From an uncultured Deferribacteres bacterium (GTDB lineage: Bacteria; Zhuqueibacterota; Zhuqueibacteria; Zhuqueibacterales; Geothermadaptataceae), in NCBI GenBank assembly GCA_964014485.1, contig CAXHAT010000010.1:5150-69149 (forward strand): DNA of 64,000 nt, given 5' to 3'. The notes beneath the pieces are model-generated. The model saw nothing but the letters and a program-made list of their open reading frames with translations, was not told the origin of the DNA and did not search any database. Shown here in pieces: positions 26,568 to 50,221 of the stretch; position 1 is the stretch's first letter, and every line of letters begins with the position of its first letter. A program made the position numbers and the translations under genes.

Positions 26568-28256
26568 CTACAAATTCATTCGATTCAACTCTTTCACCGC
26601 GTGATCGCAAGCTCTGGCGGTCAGCGCCATGTAGGTGATCGATGGATTCTGACAAGCGGAGGACGTCATGCACGAACCGTCGGTCACGAAAACATTTGGG
26701 GCTTCGTGGCATTGATTATGAGCGTTTAAAACCGAAGTTTTCGGGTCTTTTCCCATCCGCGCCGTGCCCATCTCATGAATACAAAGTCCCGGAGGCGAGG
26801 GCAAATTGTAAGTGTAAACTTGTTTTCCTCCAGCCGCCTCAAGCATTTCTACCACGTTCGTGACGATTTCTTTCTTAATGTTCTGCTCGTTTTCGCGATA
26901 AGTGCAGTGGATGTCCAAAGTAGGAATTCCCCATTCATCTGTCTTGTCGCCGCTCAGTTCGACGTAGTTGTCTTCGTAAGGCAAACATTCACCCCAGCCG
27001 CCAATATTCATCCGCCAGGGGCCCGGCTCGCGAAGCGCATTTTTGAAATCAGCGCCGAAGCCGGGCATTTTCATGCCGCGTCCCCAACCGTCGCGCCACG
27101 CGCCGCCTTGAAAACCATAGCCGCGCAGAAAATTCGGGTGCTGTTTTTTGATATTCTGAAATCGCGGGATATAAATGCCGTTTGGTCGCTTGCCTGAAAA
27201 ATACTTGTCTTCAAATCCTTCAAACGTTGCGCCCGCGCCGGAGTCATAGGTGTGATCCATTAAATAATGGCCCAACGCGCCGCTGCCGTTTGCAAACCCG
27301 TTTGGGAATCGGGACGAGGTGGAGTTGAGCATGATTTGCGTCGTGCCAAGCGTGGAAGCGCACATAAAAACAATGCGCGCTTTGTACTCAATGTCTTGCC
27401 TGGTGTTCGCATCAATCACCCGCACGCCGGTCGCACGATTTTTCGTCTCGTCGAACATGATGCTGTGCGCGATGCTGTCGGTTTTAATGGTCAAATTCCC
27501 GGTGGCTAAAGCGGCGGGGAGAGTCGCGCTCGGGCTGCTGAAATACGAGCCCGTTGAACAGCCTCGTTGACATGGGCCGCAGTAATGACAAGCTGCGCGA
27601 CCGTTGTGAGCTTGCGTAAGCACGGCGCAGCGCCCAATCGTCATCATGCGGTCTGAAAAATGCTTTGCGATGCTTTCTTTAACATGCTGTTCGACGCAAC
27701 TCATTTGCATCGGCGGCAAGAACTTTCCGTCCGGCAACTGCGGCAAGCCTTCCGCCTGACCGCTGATTCCGGCGAATGTTTCGACGTAATCGTACCATGG
27801 CGCAATGTCTTTGTAGCGAATCGGCCAATCGACGCCAAAACCGTCCTTTGCGTTTGCCTCAAAATCAAGATCGCTCCAGCGATAGCATTGGCGCGCCCAA
27901 GTCAGGGAGCGACCGCCCAAATGATAACCGCGAATCCAGGAAAAAGGTTTGTCGGCGGGGGTTGAGTACGGATGTCGTTTGTCGTTGGCAAAAAAATGTT
28001 TTGTCGATTCGTTGAAGGCGTAGCATTGCTTTTGAACTTGGTATTCATCTTCGAAAAGCTGACGTTCGCCCTGAAGGCGGTACGGATATTCCCACTCCGG
28101 TTTATGCTCCGTCACATAATCTTTTCCATGCTCTACGTGCCTGCCGCGTTCGAGCAGCACGACCTTAAGGCCTTTCTCGGCCAACTCTTTCGCCGCCCAA
28201 CCGCCTGTGATTCCGGAACCTACAACAATCGCATCGAATTCATTCGTGTTCGGCAT
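26568..28256 (-). CDS. GMC-family FAD oxidoreductase (gluconate 2-dehydrogenase flavoprotein-like)
   Basis: FAD motif FDAIVVGSGITGGWAAKELAEKGLKVVLLERG plus a GMC C-terminal region. I prefer the Met at 28256 (MPNTNEF) over the ORF-track start at 28358, whose extra 34 aa look non-coding. Confidence 0.8.
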   Translation of the reverse strand: MPNTNEFDAIVVGSGITGGWAAKELAEKGLKVVLLERGRHVEHGKDYVTEHKPEWEYPYRLQGERQLFEDEYQVQKQCYAFNESTKHFFANDKRHPYSTPADKPFSWIRGYHLGGRSLTWARQCYRWSDLDFEANAKDGFGVDWPIRYKDIAPWYDYVETFAGISGQAEGLPQLPDGKFLPPMQMSCVEQHVKESIAKHFSDRMMTIGRCAVLTQAHNGRAACHYCGPCQRGCSTGSYFSSPSATLPAALATGNLTIKTDSIAHSIMFDETKNRATGVRVIDANTRQDIEYKARIVFMCASTLGTTQIMLNSTSSRFPNGFANGSGALGHYLMDHTYDSGAGATFEGFEDKYFSGKRPNGIYIPRFQNIKKQHPNFLRGYGFQGGAWRDGWGRGMKMPGFGADFKNALREPGPWRMNIGGWGECLPYEDNYVELSGDKTDEWGIPTLDIHCTYRENEQNIKKEIVTNVVEMLEAAGGKQVYTYNLPSPPGLCIHEMGTARMGKDPKTSVLNAHNQCHEAPNVFVTDGSCMTSSACQNPSITYMALTARACDHAVKELNRMNL

Positions 28257-28362
28257 TTTGTTTTCTCGGTATGGTTTGTTTTTGGAAAATACGCAGGAGT
28301 GCAAAGCTTGCTTTGCCCAAGACGCCGATAGAAGAAGCAAGGCAAGCCTTGCACTCATTTTT

Positions 28363-29106
28363 TCAGCTCAAGCACGTTCGCAACTCATTCCAGAGTGCGA
28401 GATAAGCTTTTGATGAAACGCTCTTTGGTGCAGTGGAAACGACAGGCTCTCGCGTGACGCCCATTTTTTCGATGTCCGACAAATAAGGGATGCGGACGTC
28501 GAAAAAGTGATTTTTCGTTTTCGACAATGCTTCGATTGTTTCGGTATGCAATTTTTTTCGCTTTTCCACCATCGAAAAGAGACCGGAGATTTTTGCGCGA
28601 TTCATATCTTGATCTTTAAAAAAGCCGGTCAGTTGCTTGAATGTATTGATGGAAAGCGAGGTGGGGATTACAGGTACGACGATTAAGTCAGCGGCGCGAA
28701 AGACATTCTCGGAAACAAGAGTCAGGTTTGGCGGGCAATCCAGGAAAATATAGTCATAATCGGTCGAGAAATAATCCAGCGTCTCGGAGAGCCGCTTCTT
28801 CGATCGTTTTGCGGCGTCCAGCGCCAGATCGAGATTGCGAAAGGAAAGGTGGGCGGGCAATAAGTCGAGACCTTCGAAGTCCGTGCCGCGAATGTGCTTG
28901 TCAAGCTTGCCGCCGCCGCGAACGATGTTTTCCGGGGAGAGTTTTTTACGCGGGCGAATACGAAAATAATAGGAAGATGCGCCTTGCGGATCAAGGTCGC
29001 AAAGCAGCGTGCGCTTTTGGTTTTGCGAGGCGAGCCAGGCAAGATTGACCGAAGTTGCGGTTTTGCCAACCCCGCCTTTAATACTGTAGAGAGCAATGAT
29101 TTTCAC
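28363..29106 (-). CDS. orphan ParA/MinD-family P-loop ATPase
   Basis: Deviant Walker A with signature lysine (YSIKGGVGKTAT). Also CDLDPQGA and IFLDCPP. No ParB-like gene lies nearby. Its start overlaps the stop of the CYTH-CHAD gene by 4 nt. Confidence 0.85.
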   Translation of the reverse strand: MKIIALYSIKGGVGKTATSVNLAWLASQNQKRTLLCDLDPQGASSYYFRIRPRKKLSPENIVRGGGKLDKHIRGTDFEGLDLLPAHLSFRNLDLALDAAKRSKKRLSETLDYFSTDYDYIFLDCPPNLTLVSENVFRAADLIVVPVIPTSLSINTFKQLTGFFKDQDMNRAKISGLFSMVEKRKKLHTETIEALSKTKNHFFDVRIPYLSDIEKMGVTREPVVSTAPKSVSSKAYLALWNELRTCLS

Positions 29107-30668
29107 GTGCGATTTCTCCGAGTCTTTTTCTTGCCAAAAAGATTTTCAAAACGAGCAGCATTTTCCGCTGATGTAAACGTCGAAAAACGCTGACTGAACT
29201 CGTGTCGAACTTCGCCTTGCCGACGATGCAACAAGGTAATCAGCCCGCCAAGAGCGGCGGAAAGCGCTTCCGGGTTTTTGCTCTTCGGCGCGATCTCGGT
29301 CATGAAGCGCTTGAGCTCCTCTTGCTGCACAAACAAATCGTTAAAATCGCCGAGGTTATCTTGCAATACTTTCAATTGCTTGACAAACAAAATCATTTGT
29401 TTTTTAGGAAACAAGGAAGTAAAAAACTCCAACAAGTAGCGCAGTTTTTTGCAATCGATCCTCAGGTCGTGCAGCGCCTGATCCGGCGTTTCGTCGTCAA
29501 TGGCTCCGCCTTTTTTTAAGACTACGTGATAGCGCTTGCGAATAAAACGCTTGGCCAGGAGCGTAACGGGCTTGTCCGCATTTGGCGCCGCCGGGTGCGA
29601 CTTTTCAGCATTTTCCCGGATTGATTCTCTGGCCGTTGCGAGAATCGATTGGTAGCGTTTGGAGCGCAATGTTCGAATAAGCCGTTTTAGTTCGATTTCA
29701 CGCTCTTCTTTCAAAGCATCAAAGAGTGGATCGAGGCCTTCACCCATAGCTGGCGGCAACATTGACTTATATTCTTCTTCCGCCAGTAAATAAACGTCGA
29801 GATCGCGCAGGCGGTTGGTCGATTTACCGAGATAAGCAAAATCAGTCTTAAGACGTTGCGTCGTTTCCGGAGTAAAAACGCCCTTAATCAGCGCTAACCC
29901 TGAACGAATACGTCGGATGGAAACGCGGAAATCGTGCAGGAATTCCGTGTCGATATCTGAAATCAAGCCCTGTTCGTTCTGCTGCATAACGTCAATCAAG
30001 TAATACACGAGCCGCTGCATTGCTTCCGCGCCGGTCATTTCAGGCGATAATTGGACGCTGACCTTCGAAGTATATTCGCCCGGTTTTTTGTCTAACAGCG
30101 CCAAAGCGGCCAAGTACGCGTCTTCCTTTAAGGGCTTGAGTCCGAATTGTCGAAAAATCGCTCTGATTTGCGCCGCTGGTTTTGGGTATCCGCGAATCGG
30201 CGTCACTCGGAACGTTCTTGTTACCGGAAGATGTTTTCTTCCGGCTATGACTTTAATTTCTTCAAGCTTGAGACGCAAAACCGTTTTTTCATCCGCGTTC
30301 AAAAGGCGCGCAGGGTGAACGTTTCTGACGAGCGCAGCCTGTTTGTAGACAGCGCGAATGTCCAAACTCTGACGGACGGCGTTTTGCGCAGGGCCTTCCG
30401 GGAAATCCTGCCAAAACGCAGGCGGCTTTTGCGCTCGCCACGAGACTTCGCTCTTTGAATTTTGGCCTGGTTTTAAAATAGAGTAAATATTCTTTTGGGC
30501 AGAGAGGCGCAGCCCCTTTGTTTCCAGGAGCCAGTCAAAAGTATCATAGTAAGTAACAGTTTCCTTGAACGGCGCTTCAAACTGCAATTTCAGGTTTTCA
30601 GGGATGGCATTAAGGATCTCGCTGTGATCCGAACTTTCAGGTACTTTAAACTTTTCCGACTTTAGCAT
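29103..30668 (-). CDS. CYTH-like + CHAD domain protein (polyphosphate-granule-associated type)
   Basis: The N-terminal ~190 aa have the layout of the CYTH-like module found in CYTH-CHAD proteins, but the ExExK motif is degenerate (SEKFKV). The C-terminal helical CHAD region contains HDFRVSIRRIRSGL and LHDLRIDCKKLRYLLEFF. Confidence 0.75.
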   Translation of the reverse strand: MLKSEKFKVPESSDHSEILNAIPENLKLQFEAPFKETVTYYDTFDWLLETKGLRLSAQKNIYSILKPGQNSKSEVSWRAQKPPAFWQDFPEGPAQNAVRQSLDIRAVYKQAALVRNVHPARLLNADEKTVLRLKLEEIKVIAGRKHLPVTRTFRVTPIRGYPKPAAQIRAIFRQFGLKPLKEDAYLAALALLDKKPGEYTSKVSVQLSPEMTGAEAMQRLVYYLIDVMQQNEQGLISDIDTEFLHDFRVSIRRIRSGLALIKGVFTPETTQRLKTDFAYLGKSTNRLRDLDVYLLAEEEYKSMLPPAMGEGLDPLFDALKEEREIELKRLIRTLRSKRYQSILATARESIRENAEKSHPAAPNADKPVTLLAKRFIRKRYHVVLKKGGAIDDETPDQALHDLRIDCKKLRYLLEFFTSLFPKKQMILFVKQLKVLQDNLGDFNDLFVQQEELKRFMTEIAPKSKNPEALSAALGGLITLLHRRQGEVRHEFSQRFSTFTSAENAARFENLFGKKKTRRNRT

Positions 30669-30672
30669 CGGA

Positions 30673-31122
30673 TTAACTCCTCTCCTGTTGTTTGGGGTTT
30701 AAGAATTTCGGCAACGATAGTATAATTTCAAGAAGGTCGGGGCGCTTAACATATGACGAGACGTCTTGCAGTGCAATCCATTTCCGCGTGCGCCAGAACG
30801 CTTCCATCCAGTCTTCATGAATTTCTTCAACGCGCATGACGAAAACGTCGATTATGCAGACGCCGCCCCATTTTTTGTGCTTGTAGACGCCAATTTTTTC
30901 TGTGTAAAAGCTTCCTCGTACGCCCGCTTCTTCTAGCGCTTCTTCGGCTGCGGACTCAATTGGCGACATGCCGCCTTCAATCAGTCCTTTTGGAATGATC
31001 CATTTTTTGCCGCTGCTGCTCGTAATAAGCAGGACGTCAATTTGACCAGTCTCATCGATGCGATACGGCAAGGCGGCGGCCTGAAGATAAACAGACTCAT
31101 TTGTTGGATTTATGTCTGGCAT
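30673..31122 (-). CDS. NUDIX hydrolase
   Basis: The Nudix box region is GLIEGGMSPIESAAEEALEEAGV. I prefer the Met at 31122 (MPDINPT); the ORF-track start is 31167. It overlaps the ppx 3' end by 26 nt. Confidence 0.75.
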   Translation of the reverse strand: MPDINPTNESVYLQAAALPYRIDETGQIDVLLITSSSGKKWIIPKGLIEGGMSPIESAAEEALEEAGVRGSFYTEKIGVYKHKKWGGVCIIDVFVMRVEEIHEDWMEAFWRTRKWIALQDVSSYVKRPDLLEIILSLPKFLNPKQQERS

Positions 31123-31999
31123 ATAAGAGTTGGACAATCCCAAAAGAAATACCGACCTGTGGCACATAGATTCTTTTAATTTTCGCCCACTCTATCACGG
31201 AAAGGTAAATTTCCGAAGCTGGTATGATGACGTCTGCGCGATCGGGTTTTAAACCGAGAACGTCTATTCGGTCAGCCAACGAAAAACCGTTTAAATACTC
31301 GTAGATGCGGTCGACTTCCTTGTAAGTCATTGGCGTGTCGGATTTTTTTCGGGCGAGTTTGAAAATTTTGTTGATATTGCCGCCGCTTCCGACGCCGCGC
31401 AGGCCTTTGTATTTTCCGGCGTGTTTTCTCACCCATTGCTTCATCGACTTCCACTGATCTTTTTTCACCAGATTGTGCAGCAACCTGACCGTGCCAATAT
31501 TGAAGGAACTGGATGCGACGACTTTTTTTCGTGAAATGACAGTTAATTCAGTGCTGCCGCCGCCGACGTCAATGTAAAGATAATTCCTGCGCGGATTGAG
31601 GCGCTCTTCGATGTGACTTGAGTAGATAATTTCCGCTTCTTCTCGCCCGCTAATGATATTGAGATCCAAATCGCTTCTTTTTTTTATTGTCTGCACGATC
31701 CTGGAGCCATTGCTTGCTTCGCGCATTGCGGATGTGGCGCATGCCATATAACTTAAGGCGCCGTAAGCTTTAATCAGATGGCCGAAGCCAATCATCGTTT
31801 CGATAAGCAGCGTTGATTTTTGCGTAGAAATTTTCTTTTTGACGAAAGAGTCTTCGCTTAAACGGATTGGCATACGTACGAATGCTTGACGCTCAAAAAT
31901 CGCCTCGTCGTCGTGTTCTTCAACTTTGGAAAGCAAGAGACGGACTGCGTTTGAGCCGATGTCGATCGCGGCGAATTTGAGGGGAAGTTTGGGCGTCAT
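31097..31999 (-). CDS. ppx: Ppx/GppA-family exopolyphosphatase (short, 300 aa)
   Basis: ASKHA phosphate-binding motifs AAIDIGSNAVRLL and IDVGGGSTE. Only the N-terminal two domains are present. Confidence 0.8.
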   Translation of the reverse strand: MTPKLPLKFAAIDIGSNAVRLLLSKVEEHDDEAIFERQAFVRMPIRLSEDSFVKKKISTQKSTLLIETMIGFGHLIKAYGALSYMACATSAMREASNGSRIVQTIKKRSDLDLNIISGREEAEIIYSSHIEERLNPRRNYLYIDVGGGSTELTVISRKKVVASSSFNIGTVRLLHNLVKKDQWKSMKQWVRKHAGKYKGLRGVGSGGNINKIFKLARKKSDTPMTYKEVDRIYEYLNGFSLADRIDVLGLKPDRADVIIPASEIYLSVIEWAKIKRIYVPQVGISFGIVQLLYARHKSNK

Positions 32000-32128
32000 T
32001 GTTAAGCAAAAAAACTATTGGTCGAGACGTTTGTGCGTCATTTCAGGAACCCCCTTTGGCATTGTTCTCGAACTCGAGAAAAGTAGGTTCTCCTGAATGA
32101 CGCTTGGTAATGACTTTCGAATAAGCTC

Positions 32129-34234
32129 TCAAAACGCAGCCAATTCCTCAGCGGGCGTTTCGGCTTCCTTCTCTTCGCCGACAATGCTCTTAAGGTATTC
32201 GTAAGTCGCTTCTTGCGAGCGAACGGCTTTGTGGCCGTTCATGCCGCGGCGGTACTGGTTTTGAAAGCGTCTGTCCAGAATACGCGCTTTCACGTTGTCT
32301 TGCCACTGCAGCTCAAGAATAGAGCGTATTTCTTCCTGAATCGATTTGTCATAAATCGGACAAGTCACTTCCACGCGACGATCCAGATTTCGCGTCATCC
32401 AGTCTGAAGAAGAAAGAAAAAACTTTTCATCGCCGCCGTTATGGAAAATGAAAAGCCGTGAGTGTTCAAGGTATTTGTCGACGATGCTAATTGCTTCAAT
32501 GTTTTCGCTCAAATCTCTAACTTTTGGCGCGATAGAAAACATCCCGCGCACGATCATCCGAATTTTTACGCCCGCCTGGCTGGCTCTGTAGAGTTTTTTA
32601 ATGATTTTGTAGTCAGAAAAATTATTCAACTTCACTGTAATTGCGGCGTCTATCCCGGCTTCCGCGTTTTTGATTTCCTTCTGAATCAACTTCGAGAACG
32701 TTTTGCGCATCTGGAACGGCGCAACCACGAGATGTCGAAAGCGACTTATTCGATAATTGTTTTCAAAGAAATCAAAAATCTTCTCAGCTTCAGACGTGAT
32801 TTCTTCGTGCGTCGTCAGCAGGCAATGATCAGTATAGATTTTGGCCGTGTCCTCATTGAAATTGCCAGTGCCTATAATGCAGTAGCGGACGATCTTTTTG
32901 TTTTCTTTGCGCTTGATCAGGCACAATTTGGAATGCACTTTTAAACCCTGCACTCCGAAGATAACTTTCACGCCTTCTTCCTGAAGCTTGTTCGCCCACT
33001 GTAAATTGGCTTCCTCGTCAAAGCGCGCCTGCAGTTCAAGTACAACAGTTACGTTTTTTCCATTCTTCGCCGCGTTAATCAAGGCATTGATAATGCTGGA
33101 GTTTTTGGCGACGCGGTAGAGCGTAATAGAAATCGATTTGACTTTGGGATCAATGGAAACGTCGCGCAGCAAATCGATAATGTACATGAACGATTGATAG
33201 GGGAAATGCAACAGAACGTCTTTTTTGCGCATCACGCGCAGCGCACTGGCGCCGCGAGTCAAGTCCTTGTGCGGCAAGGGCGGGACAGTCTTTTCAATGA
33301 AACTTGGCGGGCCGATGCGCGGGAACCCGATGAAATCTTTAAAGTTGTGATAACGCGCGCCGGGGATGATCGTATCTTTTGCTTTGTTGACCTTGTTTCG
33401 GGAGACGATGATTTTGAGCAAGCTGTCCGGCATGTCTTCATCGTAAATGAAGCGCACTGTCCTGCCGGACTTTCGTTTTTGTAACCCGCGATGGATTTTG
33501 TGCATATAGCTTTGCGTCGGATCGTTGTCAAAATCCAACTCGGCGTCGCGGGTCGTTTTAATAGTGTATGCTTCGAATTGCTGATAATCGAAAATGGAGA
33601 AAATGTCCCGCAGCCCAAAACGGATCACATCGTCGAGCAGCATGATGTATTGATTACCGTTGTTTTTGGGGAGAATCAAGAAACGGGGCAGGAGAGTGGT
33701 GGGCACTTCGATGAGAGCGAGTCTCTGCGTTTGTTTGCTGAACGATTCTCTCATCAGAACCGTAAGATAAATCGCGTGATCTTTTAGATGCGGGAACTTT
33801 GAGCGTTTGTTGAACATGATCGGGAAGAGCTTTGGCCGGACTTCGCGCAAAAAATAGGTGTGAACAAACTCAGCCTGCTCCTCGTCCAGCCCCTTCGCAT
33901 CGGCGAGAATGATGATCTTGTTGCGTGCAAGTTCCAGAATAATCTGATCATAAATGTCGTTGAACAGATCAGTCTGGTCGATGACAATGTCCTCGATGCG
34001 GTTGATGATGCGGTTCGGATCGTGCCCGATAATCGATTTCGCATTCTCCTTGAGCGGAGCCAAACGTTTTAAAGTGGCAACACGTACGCGAAAGAATTCA
34101 TCGAGATTGTTGGAAAAGATTCCAAGAAATTTGATGCGTTCGATTAATGGGACGGTTGGGTCGGCGGCTTCTTGCAACACGCGGGCGTTGAAGGACAGCC
34201 AACTGATCTCCTTGTTGATAAATTTTGCTTTCAT
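32129..34234 (-). CDS. ppk1: polyphosphate kinase 1
   Basis: 701 aa. The canonical N-terminus is FINKEISWLSFNARVLQEA. Also has IERIKFLGIFSNNLDEFF and PLD-like C-terminal domains with HSKLCLI. Confidence 0.9.
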   Translation of the reverse strand: MKAKFINKEISWLSFNARVLQEAADPTVPLIERIKFLGIFSNNLDEFFRVRVATLKRLAPLKENAKSIIGHDPNRIINRIEDIVIDQTDLFNDIYDQIILELARNKIIILADAKGLDEEQAEFVHTYFLREVRPKLFPIMFNKRSKFPHLKDHAIYLTVLMRESFSKQTQRLALIEVPTTLLPRFLILPKNNGNQYIMLLDDVIRFGLRDIFSIFDYQQFEAYTIKTTRDAELDFDNDPTQSYMHKIHRGLQKRKSGRTVRFIYDEDMPDSLLKIIVSRNKVNKAKDTIIPGARYHNFKDFIGFPRIGPPSFIEKTVPPLPHKDLTRGASALRVMRKKDVLLHFPYQSFMYIIDLLRDVSIDPKVKSISITLYRVAKNSSIINALINAAKNGKNVTVVLELQARFDEEANLQWANKLQEEGVKVIFGVQGLKVHSKLCLIKRKENKKIVRYCIIGTGNFNEDTAKIYTDHCLLTTHEEITSEAEKIFDFFENNYRISRFRHLVVAPFQMRKTFSKLIQKEIKNAEAGIDAAITVKLNNFSDYKIIKKLYRASQAGVKIRMIVRGMFSIAPKVRDLSENIEAISIVDKYLEHSRLFIFHNGGDEKFFLSSSDWMTRNLDRRVEVTCPIYDKSIQEEIRSILELQWQDNVKARILDRRFQNQYRRGMNGHKAVRSQEATYEYLKSIVGEEKEAETPAEELAAF

Positions 34235-34257
34235 CCTGACTCCTCCGAATTTTGAGG

Positions 34258-34926
34258 TCAGATTTTCGAGACCGCTGCAAAATATTTAGCTAGCTTTTTG
34301 CTCGATTTTTTGACCTCGCTGATCACTTCTTTTGTGGCGGGTACAGCGAACTCGGACAGCACCGCTTTAAGGCTCGATTCTATCTCCGGCTGCATTCTTT
34401 TTCTTAAATCTTTTGTAGTTAAAATGTTTTGGGCAAGATTTTCCGGTTTCTCGAAAAACGCCAATTCCCCATCCCCCAAAGCCAGCGTTCTCCAACTGCG
34501 CCGCTTTGTTTTGATGCAAACGGCGCCGCATTTCGGAATGTTGGCGTTAAAGTCGGAAAGCATAGCTGCGGCGAAGTGCGAAAAACCGGGGTTATGGCCA
34601 AATAGCATCACATGTTGATAGCTGTTGTCAAGCTGATGCAGCTCAGTCAGAAAATCGTCAGGGGACAATGCTTCGTATAGCCCCCTGGTTTTGATAATTT
34701 GATCTTCGGGTATTTGCAGGATGTTTGCAAAGATGATAGCAGTGTCCAGCGCTCTGTTGGCTGAACTGGAGACAAGAAGCGAGGGCGGCAATTCAAGAGA
34801 TTTGATTTTGCGCGCCATTTGATGTGATTGCAGCTCGCCTTTCGTTTTCAACGGGCGTTCAAAATCAGGCTTGTCATGTTGAAAGCGAACGGCGGCGGCG
34901 TGGCGGACTAATGTAATCGTCTTCAT
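34258..34926 (-). CDS. SixA-type histidine phosphatase with ~60-aa C-terminal helical extension
   Basis: Contains the LVRHAAA (RHG-type catalytic His) and LFGHNPGFS motifs. The last ~60 aa are Lys-rich and look amphipathic. Confidence 0.75.
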   Translation of the reverse strand: MKTITLVRHAAAVRFQHDKPDFERPLKTKGELQSHQMARKIKSLELPPSLLVSSSANRALDTAIIFANILQIPEDQIIKTRGLYEALSPDDFLTELHQLDNSYQHVMLFGHNPGFSHFAAAMLSDFNANIPKCGAVCIKTKRRSWRTLALGDGELAFFEKPENLAQNILTTKDLRKRMQPEIESSLKAVLSEFAVPATKEVISEVKKSSKKLAKYFAAVSKI

Positions 34927-35509: not shown

Positions 35510-36073
35510 TTACCACGCGGAGTCGTGCGCCCAGGTCTTGCCGATGTCTGCGTACGGCACGCAGCCGTCGAATGTGCTGTGAATCGGTGCGTATTTCAGT
35601 TCTTGCGTCATGCCGATTTCCGAAGTGTAATACCCAACCAACGTCAATTCTTTCAGGCGATGAAAAAACGGCTTCTCTCCGGCAAGCTGGATGGAAGCGA
35701 ACGAGCCTTCGCTTGCTTCCATAGCTTTTAAATGTTGAACCTGCTCTTCTTGCGGAAGCGAAACGAAGCCGTCTGTTTCAATTTCAGACAATCCGATCAT
35801 GAAGCCGTCGCGTTCTTTCGGCGTGTACCAGTCCGCCAGCATCGCGTCGATAAATTGATGCACTCCTGCTGCATGCGCACCCGGCGTGTCGGTTTCTGGG
35901 ATGATTAAATCCGTCAACGCCGCCACAAGTTCGGCCTGCTCGTCGGTCAGGAATTTGGGCTTCCAGCCGGGAGCGCCTGCTTGACAGCCGGACAAAACCG
36001 CGGAAATGGTTGAAGAAGATAATGCGCCGCCCAAAGCGATGCTGATATTCTTTAGCGCTTGTCTTCGATCCAT
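35510..36073 (-). CDS. gluconate 2-dehydrogenase subunit 3-family protein with Tat signal
   Basis: MDRRQALKNISIALGG is a twin-arginine signal. IIPETDTPGAHAAGVHQFID is the family signature. I prefer the Met at 36073 over the ORF-track start at 36124. Confidence 0.75.
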   Translation of the reverse strand: MDRRQALKNISIALGGALSSSTISAVLSGCQAGAPGWKPKFLTDEQAELVAALTDLIIPETDTPGAHAAGVHQFIDAMLADWYTPKERDGFMIGLSEIETDGFVSLPQEEQVQHLKAMEASEGSFASIQLAGEKPFFHRLKELTLVGYYTSEIGMTQELKYAPIHSTFDGCVPYADIGKTWAHDSAW

Positions 36074-36249
36074 GCGTATGCTCAAGTTTGGAATGAGAAA
36101 GTTTTTGCGACAACTAAAACTCAAAAAATGGCAAGAAAGTCAAGCAGAAACGCGCTAGGTTGAAAGACGCTGTAGAATTAATTTGGGACTTTCTCGTTTC
36201 AATAGACAACAGCGCTACATTACGGGAAGTCGTGTAGCCTGTGGCGCGC

Positions 36250-39200
36250 TTATTTGACTTTGGTGACTTCGCCGTCGCGCTTGACAATTATTTCCCTTGC
36301 TCCCGCCGGAATTTCGGATTCAATCGTTTCTCCACTCGGCCAACGCACTTGCACGTTTTTAACGCCCTCTCGAACGCCGAAAACTTGCACCGCTGAGCTC
36401 TGAGACCAATAACCGGAACCTGCCTGAATTTCTCGCACCGGCCCGTCCCCATTTTCATATTTTACACGAACAACAGCGCCGACGCCGTGCGGGTTTTCAG
36501 AAGCGCCTTGCAAACGCACGCGCAAACCCGGCTTGGCTCCAACGTTTTTAAAGAGCATTGTTTCTGCTGCGTTTTGCGAAACGACAAGATCAACGCGCCC
36601 GTCGCCGTCGTAGTCGCTCAAGGCTGCAGCGCGCTGCTCGCCGTAAGCTTCGACGCCGGACTCTTGCGCGTGAACGGCTTGCAAGCCGCCTTTGCCGTCG
36701 CCGCGCAGCCAAAGTCCGCGCCCGGCGTCAGAGCGGGATGTAGCTTCCGGGTATGAGAAGAAGTTTTGGCTTAAAAAAACGTCATCATGGCCGTCGCCGT
36801 CAAAGTCTGCAATACCCGCATGAAAAGCCGGAGTGAGCTGCGCTTCAAGCGGCAACTCCACGGCTTCAAATTTCTCGCCGCGATTGAAAAACACCATATG
36901 CGCCAACGTATTTGTCGCAAGACTTCCTGCATCACTTTTTAATCTTGGTCCCGCGATTTCCTGGACAGTGGAACGGCTGTATTTCTTGTGGCTGGGCATG
37001 CGCATTCGCGTCATCGGTATCGCCCGCATCATCGTGTTCAGGTTGCGGAACGGCATATAGGCTTGCAGCTCGGGAACAAAATAGGATTCGATAATATCGA
37101 TGACGCCGTTGCGATCAAAATCATAATAAAAAAGGCGTAATGGATTTTCGGCAGTGATTTTTCCAGCGTATTTATTGTTTAAGCCCCAGTTGGTCGCGAT
37201 AATGTCGAGCTTGCCGTCTTCGTCCAGGTCGCCGGTCGTGACGCCGTTCCACCAGCCGAGATATTGCGACAGCCCCAGCGCTTCGGTCACATTCTCAAAT
37301 GCGCCGTTTGTGTTGCGGAAAATGTTTACTGCGCCCCACTCTACCGCAAGAATCAAGTCCGGGTCGCCGTCCGAATCAAAATCACTGAACACCGCGCCCG
37401 AAACCATGCCGAATTGAGCTAGCTTCTCCGAATTCAGATCGTCCTTTTGAAAAACGCCCTTTTCGTTTTTGTAGAGAAATGATGGAGCCGGAACGCCGTA
37501 CCGTCCGGGAATGCTGCGTCCGCCAACAAACAAATCGAGATCGCCGTCACCGTCGTAGTCCGCCATAGCCAGCGGCCCAACGCCAGCCGCGCCCGCAGTA
37601 ATTTTGGAGCCTTGTGAACCGGCCCTTTGTTCATCAGCAGGCATTTGCTCGATAAATGAAGCTTCTCTGGAAATGCTCTCAAAATTTGAATGACTGACCA
37701 ATAAAGACGCCGAGTTATCCGCACCCGTCCAGGCCAACACGCCTGTTTTTTCGTATTCTGTGACAGCGCCGTTCACCAGCCGTTCTTCTTTTCTAAAAGC
37801 GCCGTTTTCGTTTTTAAAGGCTGCGACAGCGCCGTCTCTTCCATTCGAAATAAGCAGATCGTCGTCCCCGTCGCCGTCCCAATCATGCCAGGAAACGCCC
37901 GGCCCCAGGCGGCTATGACGCACCGGCATGAGCGGCTGGCGCACAAAATCATCAAACGGGCCTTCATAATGCTTGTGGTCGAGCAAATGGCTGACGTCTT
38001 CAAAAAAAGGCTTTGGCTGGAGTTGCTTGGCAGCCTCAACGACTCTTGCTGAAGATTCATCGATTTCGTAAATGCGATTTGGCTGAACGTTTTCAACTGT
38101 ACTGACCATTCCGTTTCGCCACGTTACCTCAATCGAAAAATCTTTCCCGCCGGTTGCGGCGAAAACCGCCATTGGATCGGAGCTTGAAAGATAGGCTCCG
38201 CCGGCGATGATTTCTTTCATCTGTATTTTCCCGTCCCCGAGCAGACGGATTTTGGCGCCGATTCCTTGCGTATTCGGCGCTTTGCCGCGTAGACGAATCG
38301 CAATTCTGTCTTCCGCCGTTTCATTGCGATAAATAGCCGCTTTTGCATTCAATCGATTCATGACAACGTCCAAATCGCCGTCGTTGTCTAAATCGCCCAA
38401 CGCCATGCCGTTGCTTATGTCCGGCGTAGAGAGTCCCCAGCTTTGACTGACGTCTTCAAACGTCAAATTGCCGCGATTTCGGAAAGCGGCGTTCGGCAGT
38501 TTGAGTTCAGGGTGGAGAAAAATGGTGTTTAAGCGATTATTGCTTGGCGGCGCCGTTTCTGAATATTGAATGGCGCTGGCAGTGAATCCGATTCGCTCTC
38601 TGCCAAGTTCCTGTGCGTCAAAATCCTGTGCGTCGTAATAGTGGCCGGTGGCGATGATCACGTCTTCATAACCGTCAAGATCGATGTCAAAAAACAAATT
38701 TGACCAGGACCATTCGGATGCGTCAATTCCGCTGTACTGCGCGATTTCGGAGTAGGTTTTGTCGCCATTGTTAAGAAAAAGCGTGTTGCGCATGTGCTGG
38801 GGGCGATTGTCAATCTCGCCCGGCATGTGGGGGAGCGGCACGGCGGTGCTTTTTTGCGTCATTCGGAATTGGTGATTGCGGCTGAGCATGTCAACAACTA
38901 AAAAATCCTGATCGCCGTCGCGGTCAATGTCTGAAAAATCAATCGCCATCGAAGAGTTGCTGATATTGCGGATTGCGAGCTTGGGAATCGCTTGAAAACG
39001 ACCAGTTCCGTCATTAATCCAAATGCGGTCGGGCGACTCGAAATCGTTGCAGACGTAAATGTCCGGATCGCCGTCGCCGTCCATGTCCTGGAATCGTGCC
39101 ATCAAGCCCCAATCCTTGAGCGTTTCCATCTTTTCGCCTGCTTCATCAAGGAAGGCGCCGCCCGTCATATCAACTTTTTCGAATTTTCCGGTTCCGTCGT

Positions 39201-39993
39201 TGAGGAGCAACTGATCCGGCTCTCCCGTTTCCTGAAACAAGACCCATTCGCCGCGAATATCCAGAACAAAATGCTCCCGAAATCGCGGTTGGATGCTGTA
39301 CTCGCCGTCGACTTCGTCAACAATGAATTCGAAAACCAGCTCGCCGGCGTCCCAAATGTCTTTCGCACTTTTCTTTTTATAGTTTGCGATGTAGACGTCC
39401 AGATCGGCATCGCCGTCAACGTCCGCCAACGCCATGGTTGATGCGCCTGTTTTGGCGGAAAACCCGTAGGCTTCAGTAACGTCGGTGAATTTTCCTGAGC
39501 CGTCATTGAGAAAAAGCGCATTTGGACCGCCAACAGCCGTGACAAGCAGGTCGAGGTCAAAATCGCCGTCAACATCTGCGAACACGGCGCCGGAAGAATT
39601 CTGGTCTTCGCAAGTAACGCCGGCGCTTTGCGCGACGTCTTCAAAGCGCCAGTCGCCGAGATTTTTGTAAAGCGCATTTGGCCCGTCGAGTCGACTAAAA
39701 TAAATATCGGCAAGCCCGTCGCCGTCGACGTCTCCAACGGCTACGCCTGAGCCGTTGAGGAGTATGCGATTTTTTTCGATAACCGCTTTCTCCAAATCAT
39801 TGGAAAAAACAATGCCGGTTTTCGATGAGTCTTGCAGTTTAAAACCGGTCTCTCCCCAGAATGGAACGTTTAGGTTTGACCATTTGTAGCCGACTTCTTC
39901 ATGCCATTCGAGCGTATTATCGGTTGTGCAAGAAATCAGCGCTAAACACAAAAAGGACGCAAAGATATTTTTGGCGATCATATTTCCGAGCAT
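36250..39993 (-). CDS. CRTAC1-family FG-GAP/VCBS repeat lipoprotein with ASPIC/UnbV-type region (paralog B)
   Basis: Lipoprotein signal is MLGNMIAKNIFASFLCLALISC. It has many D.DGDGD.D FG-GAP calcium-loop repeats and an RIYEIDE-containing ASPIC/UnbV-like segment. It is collinear with the 40388-44122 product at roughly half identity by eye. Confidence 0.8.
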   Translation of the reverse strand: MLGNMIAKNIFASFLCLALISCTTDNTLEWHEEVGYKWSNLNVPFWGETGFKLQDSSKTGIVFSNDLEKAVIEKNRILLNGSGVAVGDVDGDGLADIYFSRLDGPNALYKNLGDWRFEDVAQSAGVTCEDQNSSGAVFADVDGDFDLDLLVTAVGGPNALFLNDGSGKFTDVTEAYGFSAKTGASTMALADVDGDADLDVYIANYKKKSAKDIWDAGELVFEFIVDEVDGEYSIQPRFREHFVLDIRGEWVLFQETGEPDQLLLNDGTGKFEKVDMTGGAFLDEAGEKMETLKDWGLMARFQDMDGDGDPDIYVCNDFESPDRIWINDGTGRFQAIPKLAIRNISNSSMAIDFSDIDRDGDQDFLVVDMLSRNHQFRMTQKSTAVPLPHMPGEIDNRPQHMRNTLFLNNGDKTYSEIAQYSGIDASEWSWSNLFFDIDLDGYEDVIIATGHYYDAQDFDAQELGRERIGFTASAIQYSETAPPSNNRLNTIFLHPELKLPNAAFRNRGNLTFEDVSQSWGLSTPDISNGMALGDLDNDGDLDVVMNRLNAKAAIYRNETAEDRIAIRLRGKAPNTQGIGAKIRLLGDGKIQMKEIIAGGAYLSSSDPMAVFAATGGKDFSIEVTWRNGMVSTVENVQPNRIYEIDESSARVVEAAKQLQPKPFFEDVSHLLDHKHYEGPFDDFVRQPLMPVRHSRLGPGVSWHDWDGDGDDDLLISNGRDGAVAAFKNENGAFRKEERLVNGAVTEYEKTGVLAWTGADNSASLLVSHSNFESISREASFIEQMPADEQRAGSQGSKITAGAAGVGPLAMADYDGDGDLDLFVGGRSIPGRYGVPAPSFLYKNEKGVFQKDDLNSEKLAQFGMVSGAVFSDFDSDGDPDLILAVEWGAVNIFRNTNGAFENVTEALGLSQYLGWWNGVTTGDLDEDGKLDIIATNWGLNNKYAGKITAENPLRLFYYDFDRNGVIDIIESYFVPELQAYMPFRNLNTMMRAIPMTRMRMPSHKKYSRSTVQEIAGPRLKSDAGSLATNTLAHMVFFNRGEKFEAVELPLEAQLTPAFHAGIADFDGDGHDDVFLSQNFFSYPEATSRSDAGRGLWLRGDGKGGLQAVHAQESGVEAYGEQRAAALSDYDGDGRVDLVVSQNAAETMLFKNVGAKPGLRVRLQGASENPHGVGAVVRVKYENGDGPVREIQAGSGYWSQSSAVQVFGVREGVKNVQVRWPSGETIESEIPAGAREIIVKRDGEVTKVK

Positions 39994-40107
39994 TTTTTGA
40001 TTGTTTTTTCGAAGGCGGGCGTTTGAGGTGAGTTTAAGAATTGCAAGGTCTGCCGCAAACTTTCGGGCAAACTTTGCAATTCTCAATTTTGAAGGTTTGC
40101 GCCAGAC

Positions 40108-40332
40108 TTACGCCCACCTGGAGCCGAAGACTTCGTTCGCGGCATTTTCAAAGTGCAAGCTCAAGCCGCCGCCGTCATTCGGATCTTCAGTCGTTTGATT
40201 GTCTCTTTCTTCAGGGTCTTGTTCTTCTTCTATTCGCGGCGCCAATAGTCCATTATTACAGGCGGACAAAAAGACTGTGGAAATTGAGAAAACGAGCAAA
40301 AGTACGAAGCTAATGAAACGGTGCTTTTTCAT
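40108..40332 (-). CDS. 74-aa acidic lipoprotein
   Basis: MKKHRFISFVLLLVFSISTVFLSAC is a lipobox signal. The remainder is acidic and disordered. It sits between the two CRTAC1 paralogs. Confidence 0.5.
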   Translation of the reverse strand: MKKHRFISFVLLLVFSISTVFLSACNNGLLAPRIEEEQDPEERDNQTTEDPNDGGGLSLHFENAANEVFGSRWA

Positions 40333-40387
40333 AACTTTTACCTCACAATAAGGTTAATCAATAAACGCAATGTAAATGAAAAAAAGG

Positions 40388-43300
40388 CTATTTGCCAGTA
40401 AAACGAACCACGACTTCTTCAGTTCCGGAAGAAATGTTTTTTTGAGTAATTTTTCCTCCAGGCCAGCGCACCTGGATTCCCTTTGCTCCGTCGCGCAAGC
40501 CAAGCACGTGCACGTCTGAATTTTGAGACCAATATCCCGAGCCGGATTGCACTTCGCGCGCCGGTCCAAGTCCATTTTCATAGACGATCCGAACGAGAGC
40601 GCCAATCCCGGAAGGATTGCCTGGCGGCCCCGCCAACTTCACGCGCAGGCCCGGCTTGGCGCCCGCGTTTTTATAAAGTTTTGTTTCGGCGCCGTTTTGA
40701 GAAACGGCGAGATCGACTCTGCCGTCTTTGTTGTAATCGCTCAATGCCGCGCCGCGTTGTTCGCCATAAATTTTGATTCCGGAATCTTGACCAGGTACTG
40801 CCGCCAAGCCGCCGCTTCCATCGCCTTTCAGCCAGAGACCGCGCCCGGCGTCGGAGCGCGAACTTTCAACGCGCTGAGCGAAAAAGTTTTGGCTTAGAAA
40901 AACATCGTCATGTCCGTCGCCGTCGTAATCTGCGACTCCAGCGTAGAAAGCTGGGGCGAACTGCGCTTCCGCGGGAAGCGGCTTTGCTTCAAATCGGTCG
41001 CCCTGATTTATGAAGACGGCGTGCGCCAGAAAACTGGCTTGCAGTTCCTGCGCTTTATCAAATTTCGGCCCGATGACGTCTTCAATTCCTGAGTGACTGT
41101 AAACGCTGTAATCGGTGAATCGCCTGCGCAAGTCAGGCATAGCCATTTGCAACCAAAATAATTCGTTTTCCGGAGCGTAGGCGCCTAATTCGGGAGTGTA
41201 AACCGTTTCAAAAAGATCGAGCGAGCTGTTGTTGTCAAAATCGTTGAAATACAGACGCAGCGGATGTTTTTTGCTGTAGCGATGCTCATACTTGCTGTTC
41301 AACCCCCAATTTGTCGCAATAATATCCAGGGCTCCGTCTTCGTCAAAATCGCCTGTCGCGACGCCCTGCCACCAGCCATGATAATCAGTCAGCCCCAATT
41401 CATGAGTAGCGTCTGCGAAAACGCCGTCATCGTTTCTGAAAATGGTGATCGGGCCCCATTCAATGGCCAGAATCAAGTCAGAATCGCCGTCGCCGTCGTA
41501 GTCGCTGAAGATCGCTGAGGAGACCATGCCGACGTGTGCAAAATTTGAATTATTGGCGCTGTCCGGGAGAAAAACGCCGTTTTCATTGCGGTAAAGTTTT
41601 GACGATGCGGCTTCAGGAAAACGCATCGGCACGCTGCGGCCGCCCGCGAAAAGGTCGAGATCGCCGTCCAAATCATAGTCCGCCATTGTCAGCGCCCCGG
41701 GGTTTGACGCCCCGAATGAAATTTTGCTAGCGGGTTTGAATTGGCCGTTCTGAAAAACAAACTGTGCAATTGAAGATTTTTCCGGCTGCATGCTTTCCAA
41801 ATTTGACTGACTAACCCAAAGGCGCGGGGTCTTTGTTTGATCGCGCCAAATGATCAATCCGTTTTGATCACCGACATTTTTTTCGCTGAATACGCCGCCC
41901 GAAAACTGTTCAAAACCACCGTTCCCGTCGTTCCGAAATCCTGCCAGGCTTCCGTCTCTGCCGCCGCCTATCAAGAGATCGTCAAAGCCGTCGTTGTCGA
42001 GATCGTGCCAAACCAGCCCAGGCCCAAGCTGGCTCAGTTTTTTGGGCAACAATACTTGCTGCTGAAAATCATCCCAAGGCTCTTCATGATGTATGTGATC
42101 GAGCGCTTCACTCACATTCTCAAAATAGGGTTTTGAAGCTTTTGGCGACTGAACTGGATCATCTGCGGCCCGCGTCGCTCCGGTTTCGTGGATTTCGTAA
42201 ATTCGATTACCTTTTGCATTCCGGATCACGCTCGTCGCACCGCTGCGCCACTTGACTTCAATGGTTAGGCCCCGATCAAGATCGGCTGCGGCAAACATAT
42301 AAATTTGGTCGGAGCTTGAGAGATATGCGCCCCCGGCGATAACCTCCTTGCTTTGCAGTACCGGGCCGCCTGAGACGCGTATTTGAGAACCGACGCCTCG
42401 GGTGTTTGGCGGCAGACCTTTCAAGCGTACGGCTATGCGAGGTTCAGAAGCTCTGTTGCGATAAACCGCCGCAGTTGTGTCGAGCCGATTGGCGACGAGA
42501 TCAAGATCGCCGTCATTGTCAAAATCGCCCAGCGCCATGCCGTGTGTGACGTCTTTTGAATCCAAGCCCCAGTCGGTTGTCACGTCTTCAAAAGTCAGGT
42601 CGCCGCGGTTGCGAAAGGCGGCGTTCGGCAGTTTCAGGTCTGGGTATTCTAAAATTTGTTTTTGCCAAGTGCTCAGGCTGGAATAGGCCCGCGTCCCTAA
42701 TTTTTTGAGCGTGTTTTCATCAAGCGCATCATGATAATGCCCTGTCCCGATCACAATGTCTTCAAAACCGTCAAGATCAACGTCCAGGAAAAAGGGCGAC
42801 CAGGACCAGTCGGAAGCGGCGACCCCGCTAAATTGTGCGATTTCGGTGTAAGTGTCGTCACCGCGATTTAAGAAAAGCGTGTTTCGTGAGTATTGCGGTC
42901 TGTCATCAATGACGCCGACGGAGTGGGGGAGAGGGACGCGATGGTAACGTTGCCGTTTTCGGAGACGATGGTCTCGGCTGAGCATGTCAAGCAGCAAAAA
43001 GTCCAAATCACCGTCGCGGTCAATGTCAGAGAAATCGACGCCCATGGTCGCCCAACTGGTATTGCGCATGGCAAGCTTCGGCATAGCGCGAAAATTTCCG
43101 GCGCCGTCGTTAATCCAGGCGTGATCCGGGCTCTCAAAATCGTTGCAAACGTAGATGTCAGGATCGCCGTCCTGATCAAAATCCTGGAAGCGCGCCGTTA
43201 GGCCCCAATCTTTGCGGTCAGTGATGCGCTCGCCGTTTTCATCCAGAAAGCGACCGTCGGTAAACGAGACGGGTGTGAATCGTCCGTTTCCGTCATTGAG

Positions 43301-49702: not shown

Positions 49703-50221
49703 AGACCTATCCTCCGCGGTTAAGTTAAGAGTGACCATCTAACCAACTAAATGAATTGTAAAACAACCATCTTTAGGTCTGTTTCAAACCAAAAGAGCAG
49801 TTATTCGATCTTCGTGGAGCATGTGTAGGAGTGACGTTTGGATTGTCTAGAACAGACAAATCGGGAAGGCTGAAATTTGTCATTTTTCTCCGATCAATAA
49901 TTAGCGTTCCAAAAATAGTCCTGGATGTTAAGAAAAGCGAAAACTCGCTTTAAGCATGGCGATAACATCCTCTAGAAAAACAGCCCAGTTTTGGCAATTT
50001 TTGAGCCATTGCAGAAATGTGATGAGGTAAAGTTATCTAAAATAATATCTTGAAGGGAAAGTGCATCATGCTGTAGAATGCGGATTAGTGCAAGTTAGTG
50101 CATACTTTTAGAGCGAAATTTTGCACCCGGCTTTTCTTATGTAATCCGAGTGGAAACATAGAGTTTATCCGACGATACGCGACGCATCGTTTGAAGATGT
50201 TCAGAAAGCTAATTTTTTACA

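Follow-up and report, generated by a model that had tools for sequence, protein, structure and literature searches.

A ParA-type ATPase gene linked to the gene of a CHAD protein from a polyphosphate-binding family: a candidate positioning module for polyphosphate granules

How bacteria place their polyphosphate (polyP) granules and pass them on to their daughters is an acknowledged open question, and one locus in an uncultured Deferribacteres bacterium brings it up again. We have studied a stretch of 64,000 nucleotides (nt) of its contig CAXHAT010000010.1, which we call the window; coordinates refer to it unless another locus is named. On the minus strand, from 34926 to 28363, it has six co-oriented genes in the order SixA-like phosphatase, PPK1, Ppx, NUDIX, CHAD and ParA. 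A first-pass annotation, made from the sequence alone, had described these six genes, and their open reading frames (ORFs) and domains are found where it had placed them, all on the minus strand. It had also proposed that the last two products position polyP granules, with the CHAD protein as adaptor on the granule and ParA as motor. What is a ParA ATPase doing at the end of a polyP cluster? We have found that the CHAD-ParA pair is real, widespread and undescribed as such: it is a candidate positioning module, in which both the cargo and the type of adaptor would be new.

The proposed adaptor has 521 amino acids (aa; 29103–30668, minus strand), with an N-terminal domain which resembles the TTM/CYTH fold and a long CHAD domain (PF05235, 196.6 bits, residues 225–452). 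The proposed motor is a ParA/MinD-family ATPase of 247 aa (28363–29106, minus strand), in which the Pfam families AAA_31 (124 bits) and CbiA (57 bits) are both found over their cut-offs. The stop codon of CHAD and the start codon of ParA overlap by 4 nt, as the first-pass annotation had noticed: the GTG start lies within GTGA (...ACGTGAAAATC). The N-terminus of ParA, MKIIALYSIKGGVGKT, agrees with the family consensus and therefore the GTG start is right.

Homologs of this ParA can be counted in thousands; they have about 247 aa, 50–61% identity and are present in many phyla. We have examined the neighbourhood from both sides. For ParA we used one genome per GTDB species and took the best 80 relatives (47–56% identity), with neighbours assigned by ORF calling and phmmer; 79 loci could be assessed. 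For CHAD we used metagenome contigs, which gave 69 assessable loci. A CHAD gene adjoins ParA in 73 of the 79 loci, 72 times directly upstream and once downstream. Conversely, ParA adjoins CHAD in 61 of the 69 metagenome loci: it is directly downstream in 56 of them, while five have other orders. On the ParA side, the 4-nt overlap is present at 31 of the 61 CHAD-ParA junctions which were measured. An adjacency that recurs in so many independent loci is not accidental. The first-pass annotation had asked whether this ParA clade accompanies CHAD in other phyla, and had considered that unrelated neighbours in relatives would speak against its proposal: both searches give the opposite result. The same counts correspond to the logic of McdAB, an ATPase gene coupled to the gene of a cargo binder.

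At least 14 phyla of Bacteria have the pair, and so do ANME-type archaea. On the ParA side the hosts include Latescibacterota, Dadabacteria, Calditrichota, KSB1, Lentisphaerota, Verrucomicrobiota, Gemmatimonadota, Chlorobi/Bacteroidota, Spirochaetota, Thermodesulfobacteriota, Actinomycetota, Alpha-, Beta- and Gammaproteobacteria, "Entotheonella" and one Methanophagales archaeon. CHAD and ParA are translationally coupled and co-inherited throughout this range, and we have little doubt that their products are functional partners.

Four contigs annotated with Pfam, from Thermodesulfobacteriota, Latescibacterota, Dadabacteria and one further genome, illustrate the arrangement. In all of them ParA comes directly after a CHAD gene of about 400–520 aa (402 in the Dadabacteria gene call, 511–518 in the others). 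Their other neighbours vary: Ppx, PPK1, PPK2, NUDIX, a separate canonical CYTH protein and His_Phos_1. In the loci of either scan we see no further gene conserved along with these two, and no ParB domain is found in the neighbourhoods annotated with Pfam or RefSeq. In the window itself we have found no ParB, replication or origin gene anywhere in the 64 kb, so that the absence of a plasmid or chromosome-origin context noted at first extends to the whole stretch. Enzymes of polyP metabolism lie inside the examined flanks in 39 of 80 metagenome loci. They accompany the pair only sometimes, and therefore the conserved unit is the two-gene pair and not the six-gene cluster.

The six CHAD-less loci among the 79 correspond to two evolutionary events, one in a sub-clade of Methylococcales and one in a single Bacteroidetes protein. 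The Methylococcales branch is monophyletic and nested among CHAD-linked Methylococcales sequences: it has lost its neighbour. In two of its loci, from Methylobacter metagenome-assembled genomes (MAGs; L065:8001–11311 and L071:5750–9191), ParA has an HDOD-REC-GGDEF protein on one side and a glycogen/carbohydrate phosphorylase on the other. In the Bacteroidetes MAG (L029:7992–9677) it is fused to a HAD domain similar to sucrose-6F-phosphate-phosphohydrolase (PF05116, E 5e-65). These cases hint that the ATPase has been re-used with carbohydrate stores in the branches without CHAD. Further away, plasmid-borne ParAs with 38–43% identity have no CHAD neighbour, so that the limit of the linked clade can be drawn near 45% identity.

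Fusions of CHAD and ParA were considered as Rosetta-stone evidence of partnership and were rejected. The ORF of 775 aa in an actinobacterial MAG (L086:6444–8771) has a 97% identical relative which is not fused. The other database "fusions", also actinobacterial (P0248, P0259 and P0301), have out-of-frame junk linkers and tails and are frameshift or gene-calling artefacts. Frameshifts in assemblies with a high G+C content (GC) are the best explanation for all of these proteins, which could mislead surveys of domain architecture.

Does the CHAD protein bind polyP? The reference is CtCHAD from Chlorobium tepidum (Q8KE09; PDB 3e0s, 6qv7, 6qva), a member of the same family with the same architecture in a protein of about 520 aa. 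Its crystallised domain (residues ~207–522) is a "long" CHAD, in which a basic central pore holds a polyP 9-mer. It has a nM–uM affinity for polyP, binding requires H253, R256, R260, R296, R438 and K441, and its oligomeric state shifts with polyP (PMC6537752). That study differs from ours in its object: it dealt with the isolated CHAD domain alone, whereas the N-terminal domain and the ParA neighbour lie outside the paper (PMC6537752). Metagenome relatives 86% identical to CtCHAD (L162, L169) have ParA downstream, so that the characterised domain comes from this ParA-linked family.

In the window protein the long CHAD domain with its central polyP pore covers approximately aa 207–511 (29136–30050, minus strand). 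A profile of 54 family members matches 3e0s (E 1.4e-103) and 6qv7 (E 2.1e-103) at profile positions 199–511. Its AlphaFold2 model (pLDDT 90.8, pTM 0.85) superimposes on the polyP complex 6qva with TM 0.95, rmsd 1.5 Å and 44% identity (Foldseek). The two four-helix bundles and the conserved His/Arg contacts with polyP of a long, pore-forming CHAD are all present. The six residues required in CtCHAD correspond to H245, R248, R252, R288, K430 and K433, which are invariant or nearly so; the first four are invariant in the family. By its membership in the CtCHAD family, the window protein is expected to bind polyP. The idea of a granule adaptor gains support here, since polyP binding in this family rests on a crystal structure and mutagenesis.

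The N-terminal domain (aa 1–200; 30069–30668, minus strand) is a different matter. It can be recognised by its fold only: in the predicted model it is an eight-stranded tunnel (pLDDT 90.8) which Foldseek matches to thiamine triphosphatases, YgiF and plant and bacterial CYTH proteins (probability 1.0, target TM 0.47–0.60). In its sequence there is no match to Pfam CYTH (PF01928) even at E<=10, and hhalign against 15 canonical CYTH proteins of related loci gives a probability of 0.1. The ExExK motif is absent; the family consensus in strand 1 is xxFxLPxxxD. The stand-alone CYTH proteins of the related loci always have the canonical residues E4, E6 and K8, to which nothing corresponds here. The CYTH label given at first is thus right for the fold and wrong for the sequence: we are dealing with a diverged tunnel-fold domain, probably non-catalytic. 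The closest architecture is that of E. coli YgiF, a CYTH-CHAD tripolyphosphatase (PDB 5a60), in which CHAD likewise comes after a TTM fold (Foldseek E 7.6e-10). However, YgiF has a catalytic CYTH and a short CHAD without pore (PMC6537752) and only 11% identity, while the window protein lacks ExExK and has a long pore-forming CHAD.

A search among 1.84 billion representatives found the N-terminal domain in 926 clusters, nearly always at the N-terminus of proteins with 505–535 aa; the shorter matches are presumably fragments. Two small segments of this domain deserve attention (aa 128–129 and 159–161; ~30186–30287). K128/T129 and G160/Y161 are near-invariant in the ParA-linked CHAD proteins, while Y161, G160 and K128 are less conserved in the ParA-less ones: for Y161 the values are 0.98 in the linked proteins and 0.29 in the others, which are only seven. 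These residues may form a loop in contact with ParA, a lead to be read with that small number in mind. The basic tail of the window protein, GKKKTRRNRT, was also considered as a ParA-stimulating peptide and was discarded, as it is not conserved in the family.

The set of ATPase motifs of its class is complete in ParA. The deviant Walker A, SIKGGVGKT, had been reported in the first-pass annotation (as IKGGVGKT) with its signature lysine and is intact: both K10 (the signature lysine) and K15 are lysines in 81 of 81 clade members. D37 and D39 (Walker A' and catalytic Asp, DxD-PQ) and D123 of Walker B (hhhhD) are also invariant in the 81 sequences. The nearest solved structures are the chromosomal ParA of M. 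xanthus (8ray, E 2.6e-22), HpSoj and TtSoj. None of the curated NCBIfam models reaches its cut-off: ParA_partition (NF041546) gives 90.3 bits against 180, BcsQ (TIGR03371) matches the full length with 65 bits against 158, MinD (TIGR01968) gives 38.6 against 212.9, and the RepA and SopA models are far below theirs. ParA has no N-terminal DNA-binding extension. It has no C-terminal amphipathic membrane-targeting helix either, as only a few residues follow the last conserved helix of the fold (YxxLWxE), and no min genes (MinC/MinE) are found nearby.

With these elements we can describe how such a module might work. We are inclined to believe, although only a little beyond an even chance, that the last two genes of the cluster form a two-component system which positions and partitions polyP granules as its cargo. 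By analogy with ParABS and McdAB, the CHAD protein would coat the granules and would recruit or stimulate ParA. Dimers of ParA with ATP would attach to some extended polyanionic matrix, for which the nucleoid is the most probable candidate. Hydrolysis stimulated by the adaptor would leave a zone depleted of ParA, which would space the few granules of each cell, so that each daughter might inherit one, as it happens with plasmids and carboxysomes. The diverged TTM-like domain would be the best candidate for the part that contacts ParA or binds the ends of polyP. The SixA-like phosphatase, PPK1, Ppx and NUDIX would make and turn over the polymer, as optional neighbours of the pair.

Several observations weigh against such a positioning module. 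Eight of the 69 CHAD loci have no adjacent ParA, and a PPK or Ppx gene is found within 8 kb in only 16 of 80 genome loci (single-sequence search). Other ParA stimulators have a conserved terminal basic peptide; in this family there is none, and the CHAD protein varies at both ends. A complex-type model, obtained with the frameshift artefact P0248, has a pTM of 0.66 and most of its ParA part has a pLDDT <60, so that it says nothing either way about the putative contact between ParA and CHAD. Granule formation was not substantially disturbed when phosin-like (CHAD) proteins were deleted in several organisms, as cited in one recent study (PMC13081873). Finally, the DNA contacts of Soj are not conserved. 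In HpSoj, non-specific DNA is bound through K227 and K230, within the motif I-P-[KR]-[SN]-V-[KR] (PMC6393308), and M. xanthus ParA no longer binds DNA when it carries the mutation R238E. In our clade this motif aligns to I-P-Y-x-S-D. Neither Lys nor Arg occurs at the contact positions of the 81 sequences: Tyr/Phe occupies position 208 in 71 of them and Asp/Glu occupies position 211 in 68, so that the nucleoid is a putative matrix. In the original proposal, then, the pairing of ParA with CHAD and the polyP-binding family of the latter stand, but the nucleoid as matrix finds no support.

Taking these substitutions as a lack of DNA binding goes too far. The plasmid ParAs with no CHAD neighbour have the same non-basic residues at 208 and 211, which weakens such a conclusion. 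The substitutions bear on two other readings of the pair, which keep CHAD as a functional partner.

In the first of them the ATPase is a switch on granule biogenesis or turnover and not a positioning motor. It could act on nucleation, size or fusion, on the oligomerisation of CHAD on polyP, or on the recruitment and release of PPK and Ppx. Genetic linkage is silent on the output of the pair, the canonical DNA-binding residues are absent and the oligomeric state of CtCHAD does change with polyP (PMC6537752). There are also suitable precedents, as the full-length though sub-threshold match to BcsQ recalls. BcsQ and the tyrosine autokinases, which are relatives of ParA/MinD, organise polymer machineries. 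Yet the closest solved relatives are all partition ParAs (8ray, HpSoj and TtSoj), no curated BcsQ or kinase model is found at its cut-off, and the pair is usually not beside PPK or Ppx. We consider a switch rather unlikely, although it is the rival that survives best.

In the second reading polyP itself is the matrix to which ParA binds with ATP, coating or bridging the granules, and CHAD regulates it there. PolyP is a polyanion which competes for DNA-binding surfaces. The positions of Soj-type DNA contact are non-basic in our clade and a basic/His cluster is conserved in the helix equivalent to alpha8 of HpSoj: R183 in 65 of 81 sequences, K184 in 79 and H187 in all 81, with frequent K/R at positions 185 and 188. 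This reading is nevertheless pure inference, and the plasmid relatives without CHAD share H187 as well as 208 and 211, so that these features are not specific for polyP and do not decide between DNA and polyP as a matrix. We judge it improbable. An extended version of the same idea takes the whole ParA clade as a dedicated partition ATPase for storage granules, with polyP as matrix and a pore-threading CHAD as regulator, and one branch derived from it, with glycogen phosphorylase as neighbour or the domain similar to sucrose-phosphate phosphatase as fusion partner, would have been re-used for carbohydrate stores. It appears to us equally improbable.

It is still less probable that polyP and CHAD act as a landmark or regulator while ParA positions something else, such as the division site, a region of the nucleoid or another complex. 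There are precedents of this kind: ParB for MipZ and PomXY for PomZ. Such a target is not apparent in the neighbourhoods, where the pair has no third conserved companion and division or chemotaxis genes are not found nearby.

The weakest reading makes an enzyme of the CHAD protein, in line with the annotations of "ACAci" in Acidithiobacillus and YgiF in E. coli (class IV adenylate cyclase or tripolyphosphatase), and takes ParA as an accidental neighbour, an orphan ATPase of chromosome or plasmid partition. It draws on the TTM/CYTH fold, on the cyclase function proposed for the CYTH-CHAD protein of Acidithiobacillus, whose neighbour was labelled "chromosome partitioning protein ParA" (PMC6416229), and on the copies found in Paracoccus megaplasmids, but it is largely refuted by the absence of ExExK and the other CYTH catalytic residues, the lack of any Pfam match or profile relation to CYTH, an adjacency kept in at least 14 phyla, as accidental neighbours are not, the lack of ParB in the neighbourhoods and the ordinary chromosomal DNA of the window.

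A positioning module made of CHAD and ParA, which is the reading we prefer, is closest in its logic to McdA-McdB of carboxysomes. In both there is a small ParA-type ATPase without ParB, encoded beside a partner associated with the cargo, and a low-copy cytoplasmic cargo which is not DNA; an adaptor on the cargo and an ATPase gradient on the matrix are what we propose here. There are also clear differences. The cargo in our case would be a granule of an inorganic polymer, and the module is a prediction from sequence. The partner is a large folded protein, TTM-like plus CHAD, while McdB is small and disordered, and it has no evident N-terminal stimulatory peptide. The similarity with McdA itself is weak (6noo, E 1e-11, limited to the N-terminal 157 residues). 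With ParABS (Soj/ParA-ParB-parS) the ATPase shares its closest structures, the deviant Walker A and the catalytic Asp residues. It differs by having a polyP binder as neighbour instead of ParB or a centromere protein, by a score of 90 against 180 for NF041546 and by the replacement of the basic residues with which Soj binds DNA.

Proteins that tie granules to the nucleoid and give an even spacing are already known: AlgP for polyP in P. aeruginosa, and PhaM, PhaF and PhaH for PHB (PMC9239181, PMC13052382). These proteins are passive tethers which bind DNA and for which no ATPase is known, whereas the conserved partner in our loci is an ATPase; by sequence they are unrelated to our pair. The gene order folD-ppk-parA-CHAD of Acidithiobacillus is nearer to our case, as published maps show parA beside CYTH-CHAD and ppk (PMC10892726, PMC6416229). 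It is probably the same module. Those papers deal with a single genus and interpret it otherwise, with ParA in plasmid or chromosome partition and CHAD as an adenylate cyclase or related to copper (PMC10892726, PMC6416229). What is new here is therefore the breadth of the adjacency and the proposed positioning role, since the neighbourhood had already been drawn for that one genus.

A ParA for polyP granules is not described in the literature we have searched, in agreement with the first-pass annotation, which did not know of any established system of this kind. A 2025 review on organelle positioning has AlgP as its sole entry for polyP granules, gives the ATP dependence as "unknown", raises the question of whether any energy goes into the placement, and comments that further polyP-positioning proteins may remain undiscovered (PMC13052382). 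Polyphosphate is not mentioned in a 2024 review on ParA/MinD. In S. elongatus, a 2026 study describes a polyP spacing which is ParA-like, periodic and independent of McdAB, with an unclear mechanism; independence from McdAB means independence from the only ParA-family ATPase of this species, and CHAD proteins are named among the candidates (PMC13081873). The CHAD-ParA pair is the first good and concrete candidate for an ATP-dependent placement and partition of polyP granules, in hosts as different as Chlorobi, Desulfobulbaceae, Actinomycetota and ANME-type archaea. It would give the long CHAD "phosins" a function beyond polyP binding and, if true, an organelle made of an inorganic polymer would join the list of ParA/MinD cargos. 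The idea can be tested directly: the structure of the polyP-binding domain type of the adaptor is available, and there are cultured carriers, namely relatives of Chlorobium/Chlorobaculum, Paracoccus aestuarii, P. marcusii, Methylomonas lenta, Roseovarius, Cohaesibacter and Acidithiobacillus.

The other four genes of the cluster can be described briefly. The first one (34258–34926, minus strand) codes for a histidine phosphatase of 222 aa, SixA-like, with a PF00300 (His_Phos_1) score of 24.3 bits, just over the cut-off of 21.7. It does not reach the sixA equivalog TIGR00249 (32.1 bits, cut-off 74.5), so that it belongs with SixA at the level of the superfamily only, as given by His_Phos_1, the RH motif R8-H9 and its size. 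PPK1 (32129–34234, minus strand, 701 aa) has all four PPK1 Pfam domains and 751.7 bits for TIGR03705, whose cut-off is 465.85. The short exopolyphosphatase (31097–31999, minus strand, 300 aa) has only the Ppx-GppA domain (PF02541, 111.6 bits); TIGR03706 gives 202.8 bits, under its cut-off of 307. The NUDIX hydrolase (30673–31167, minus strand; PF00293, 30.5 bits) has 164 aa in its longest ORF. The overlap with ppx noted at first is present if this ORF starts at 31167, and disappears in the public call, which starts with TTG at 31071 and gives 132 aa and a gap of 25 nt. The gaps between genes had been described as tiny, which is right for most of them; the exception is PPK1-Ppx, with 129 nt.

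Some of these genes are associated with the pair elsewhere. NUDIX genes adjoin it in other phyla too, and in two sets of 80 related loci a homolog of the histidine phosphatase is found near it 8 and 25 times. In Entotheonella (L074:7935–12587) ParA is followed by a SixA-CHAD fusion of 727 aa and by a double-domain PPK2. In L146 the SixA-like and CHAD proteins are encoded separately after ParA, L143 also has a variant order, and in L159 ParA lies divergently upstream of CHAD. Taken together, these variant orders link the histidine phosphatase with the CHAD protein. In cultured strains of Paracoccus the order CHAD-ATPase-CYTH-NUDIX is found on megaplasmids; in P. marcusii it lies close to phoB. 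A peculiarity of these plasmids is a hypothetical ORF of 62 aa which overlaps the CHAD start by 4 nt in both species (L170:4299–4487, L173:1788–1976). It could be a small third component specific to this lineage; we have found no equivalent in the window.

The cluster ends with ParA, because the following gene, a GMC flavoprotein oxidoreductase (26568–28256), starts at 28256 and there is a hairpin in between. The ORF of this oxidoreductase apparently starts 4 nt past ParA, but its real start gives a protein of 562 aa. The hairpin (28337–28352, minus strand, GCAAGGCTTGCCTTGC) is G+C-rich and comes directly after the ParA stop. It was found in a scan for terminator-like sequences and is the sole item kept from the promoter and terminator scan, in which the total number of matches was not above shuffled expectation; it might mark the end of the transcription unit, a possibility to which we give little weight. 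On the other side of the cluster there is a small subunit of the Gluconate_2-dh3 type with a TAT signal (35510–36124). Such subunits and GMC oxidoreductases are normally neighbouring partners. The GC of the cluster is 0.47–0.485, as compared with 0.52 in each flank. With the two partner genes at its sides and a lower GC, the polyP cluster looks as if it had been inserted between two dehydrogenase genes.

The rest of the window is ordinary chromosomal DNA, with genes for DprA, Obg, isocitrate dehydrogenase and a histidine kinase among others. The Rfam scan of the window gives no matches. A defence system was also considered and discarded, as PADLOC yields only generic PLD and P-loop matches. 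Two further regions are worth mentioning. In positions 36250–44122 and 46256–49738, on the minus strand, there are two FG-GAP/ASPIC-UnbV proteins of about 1250 aa, a SusC-like TonB receptor with CarboxypepD_reg and proteins with FlgD_ig C-terminal domains. They suggest a source within the FCB group. On the plus strand, an ORF of 2535 aa with no Pfam match at E<=1e-5 (7548–15155) occupies the stretch with the highest GC of the window (0.54–0.56) and is followed by a TPR protein of 700 aa.

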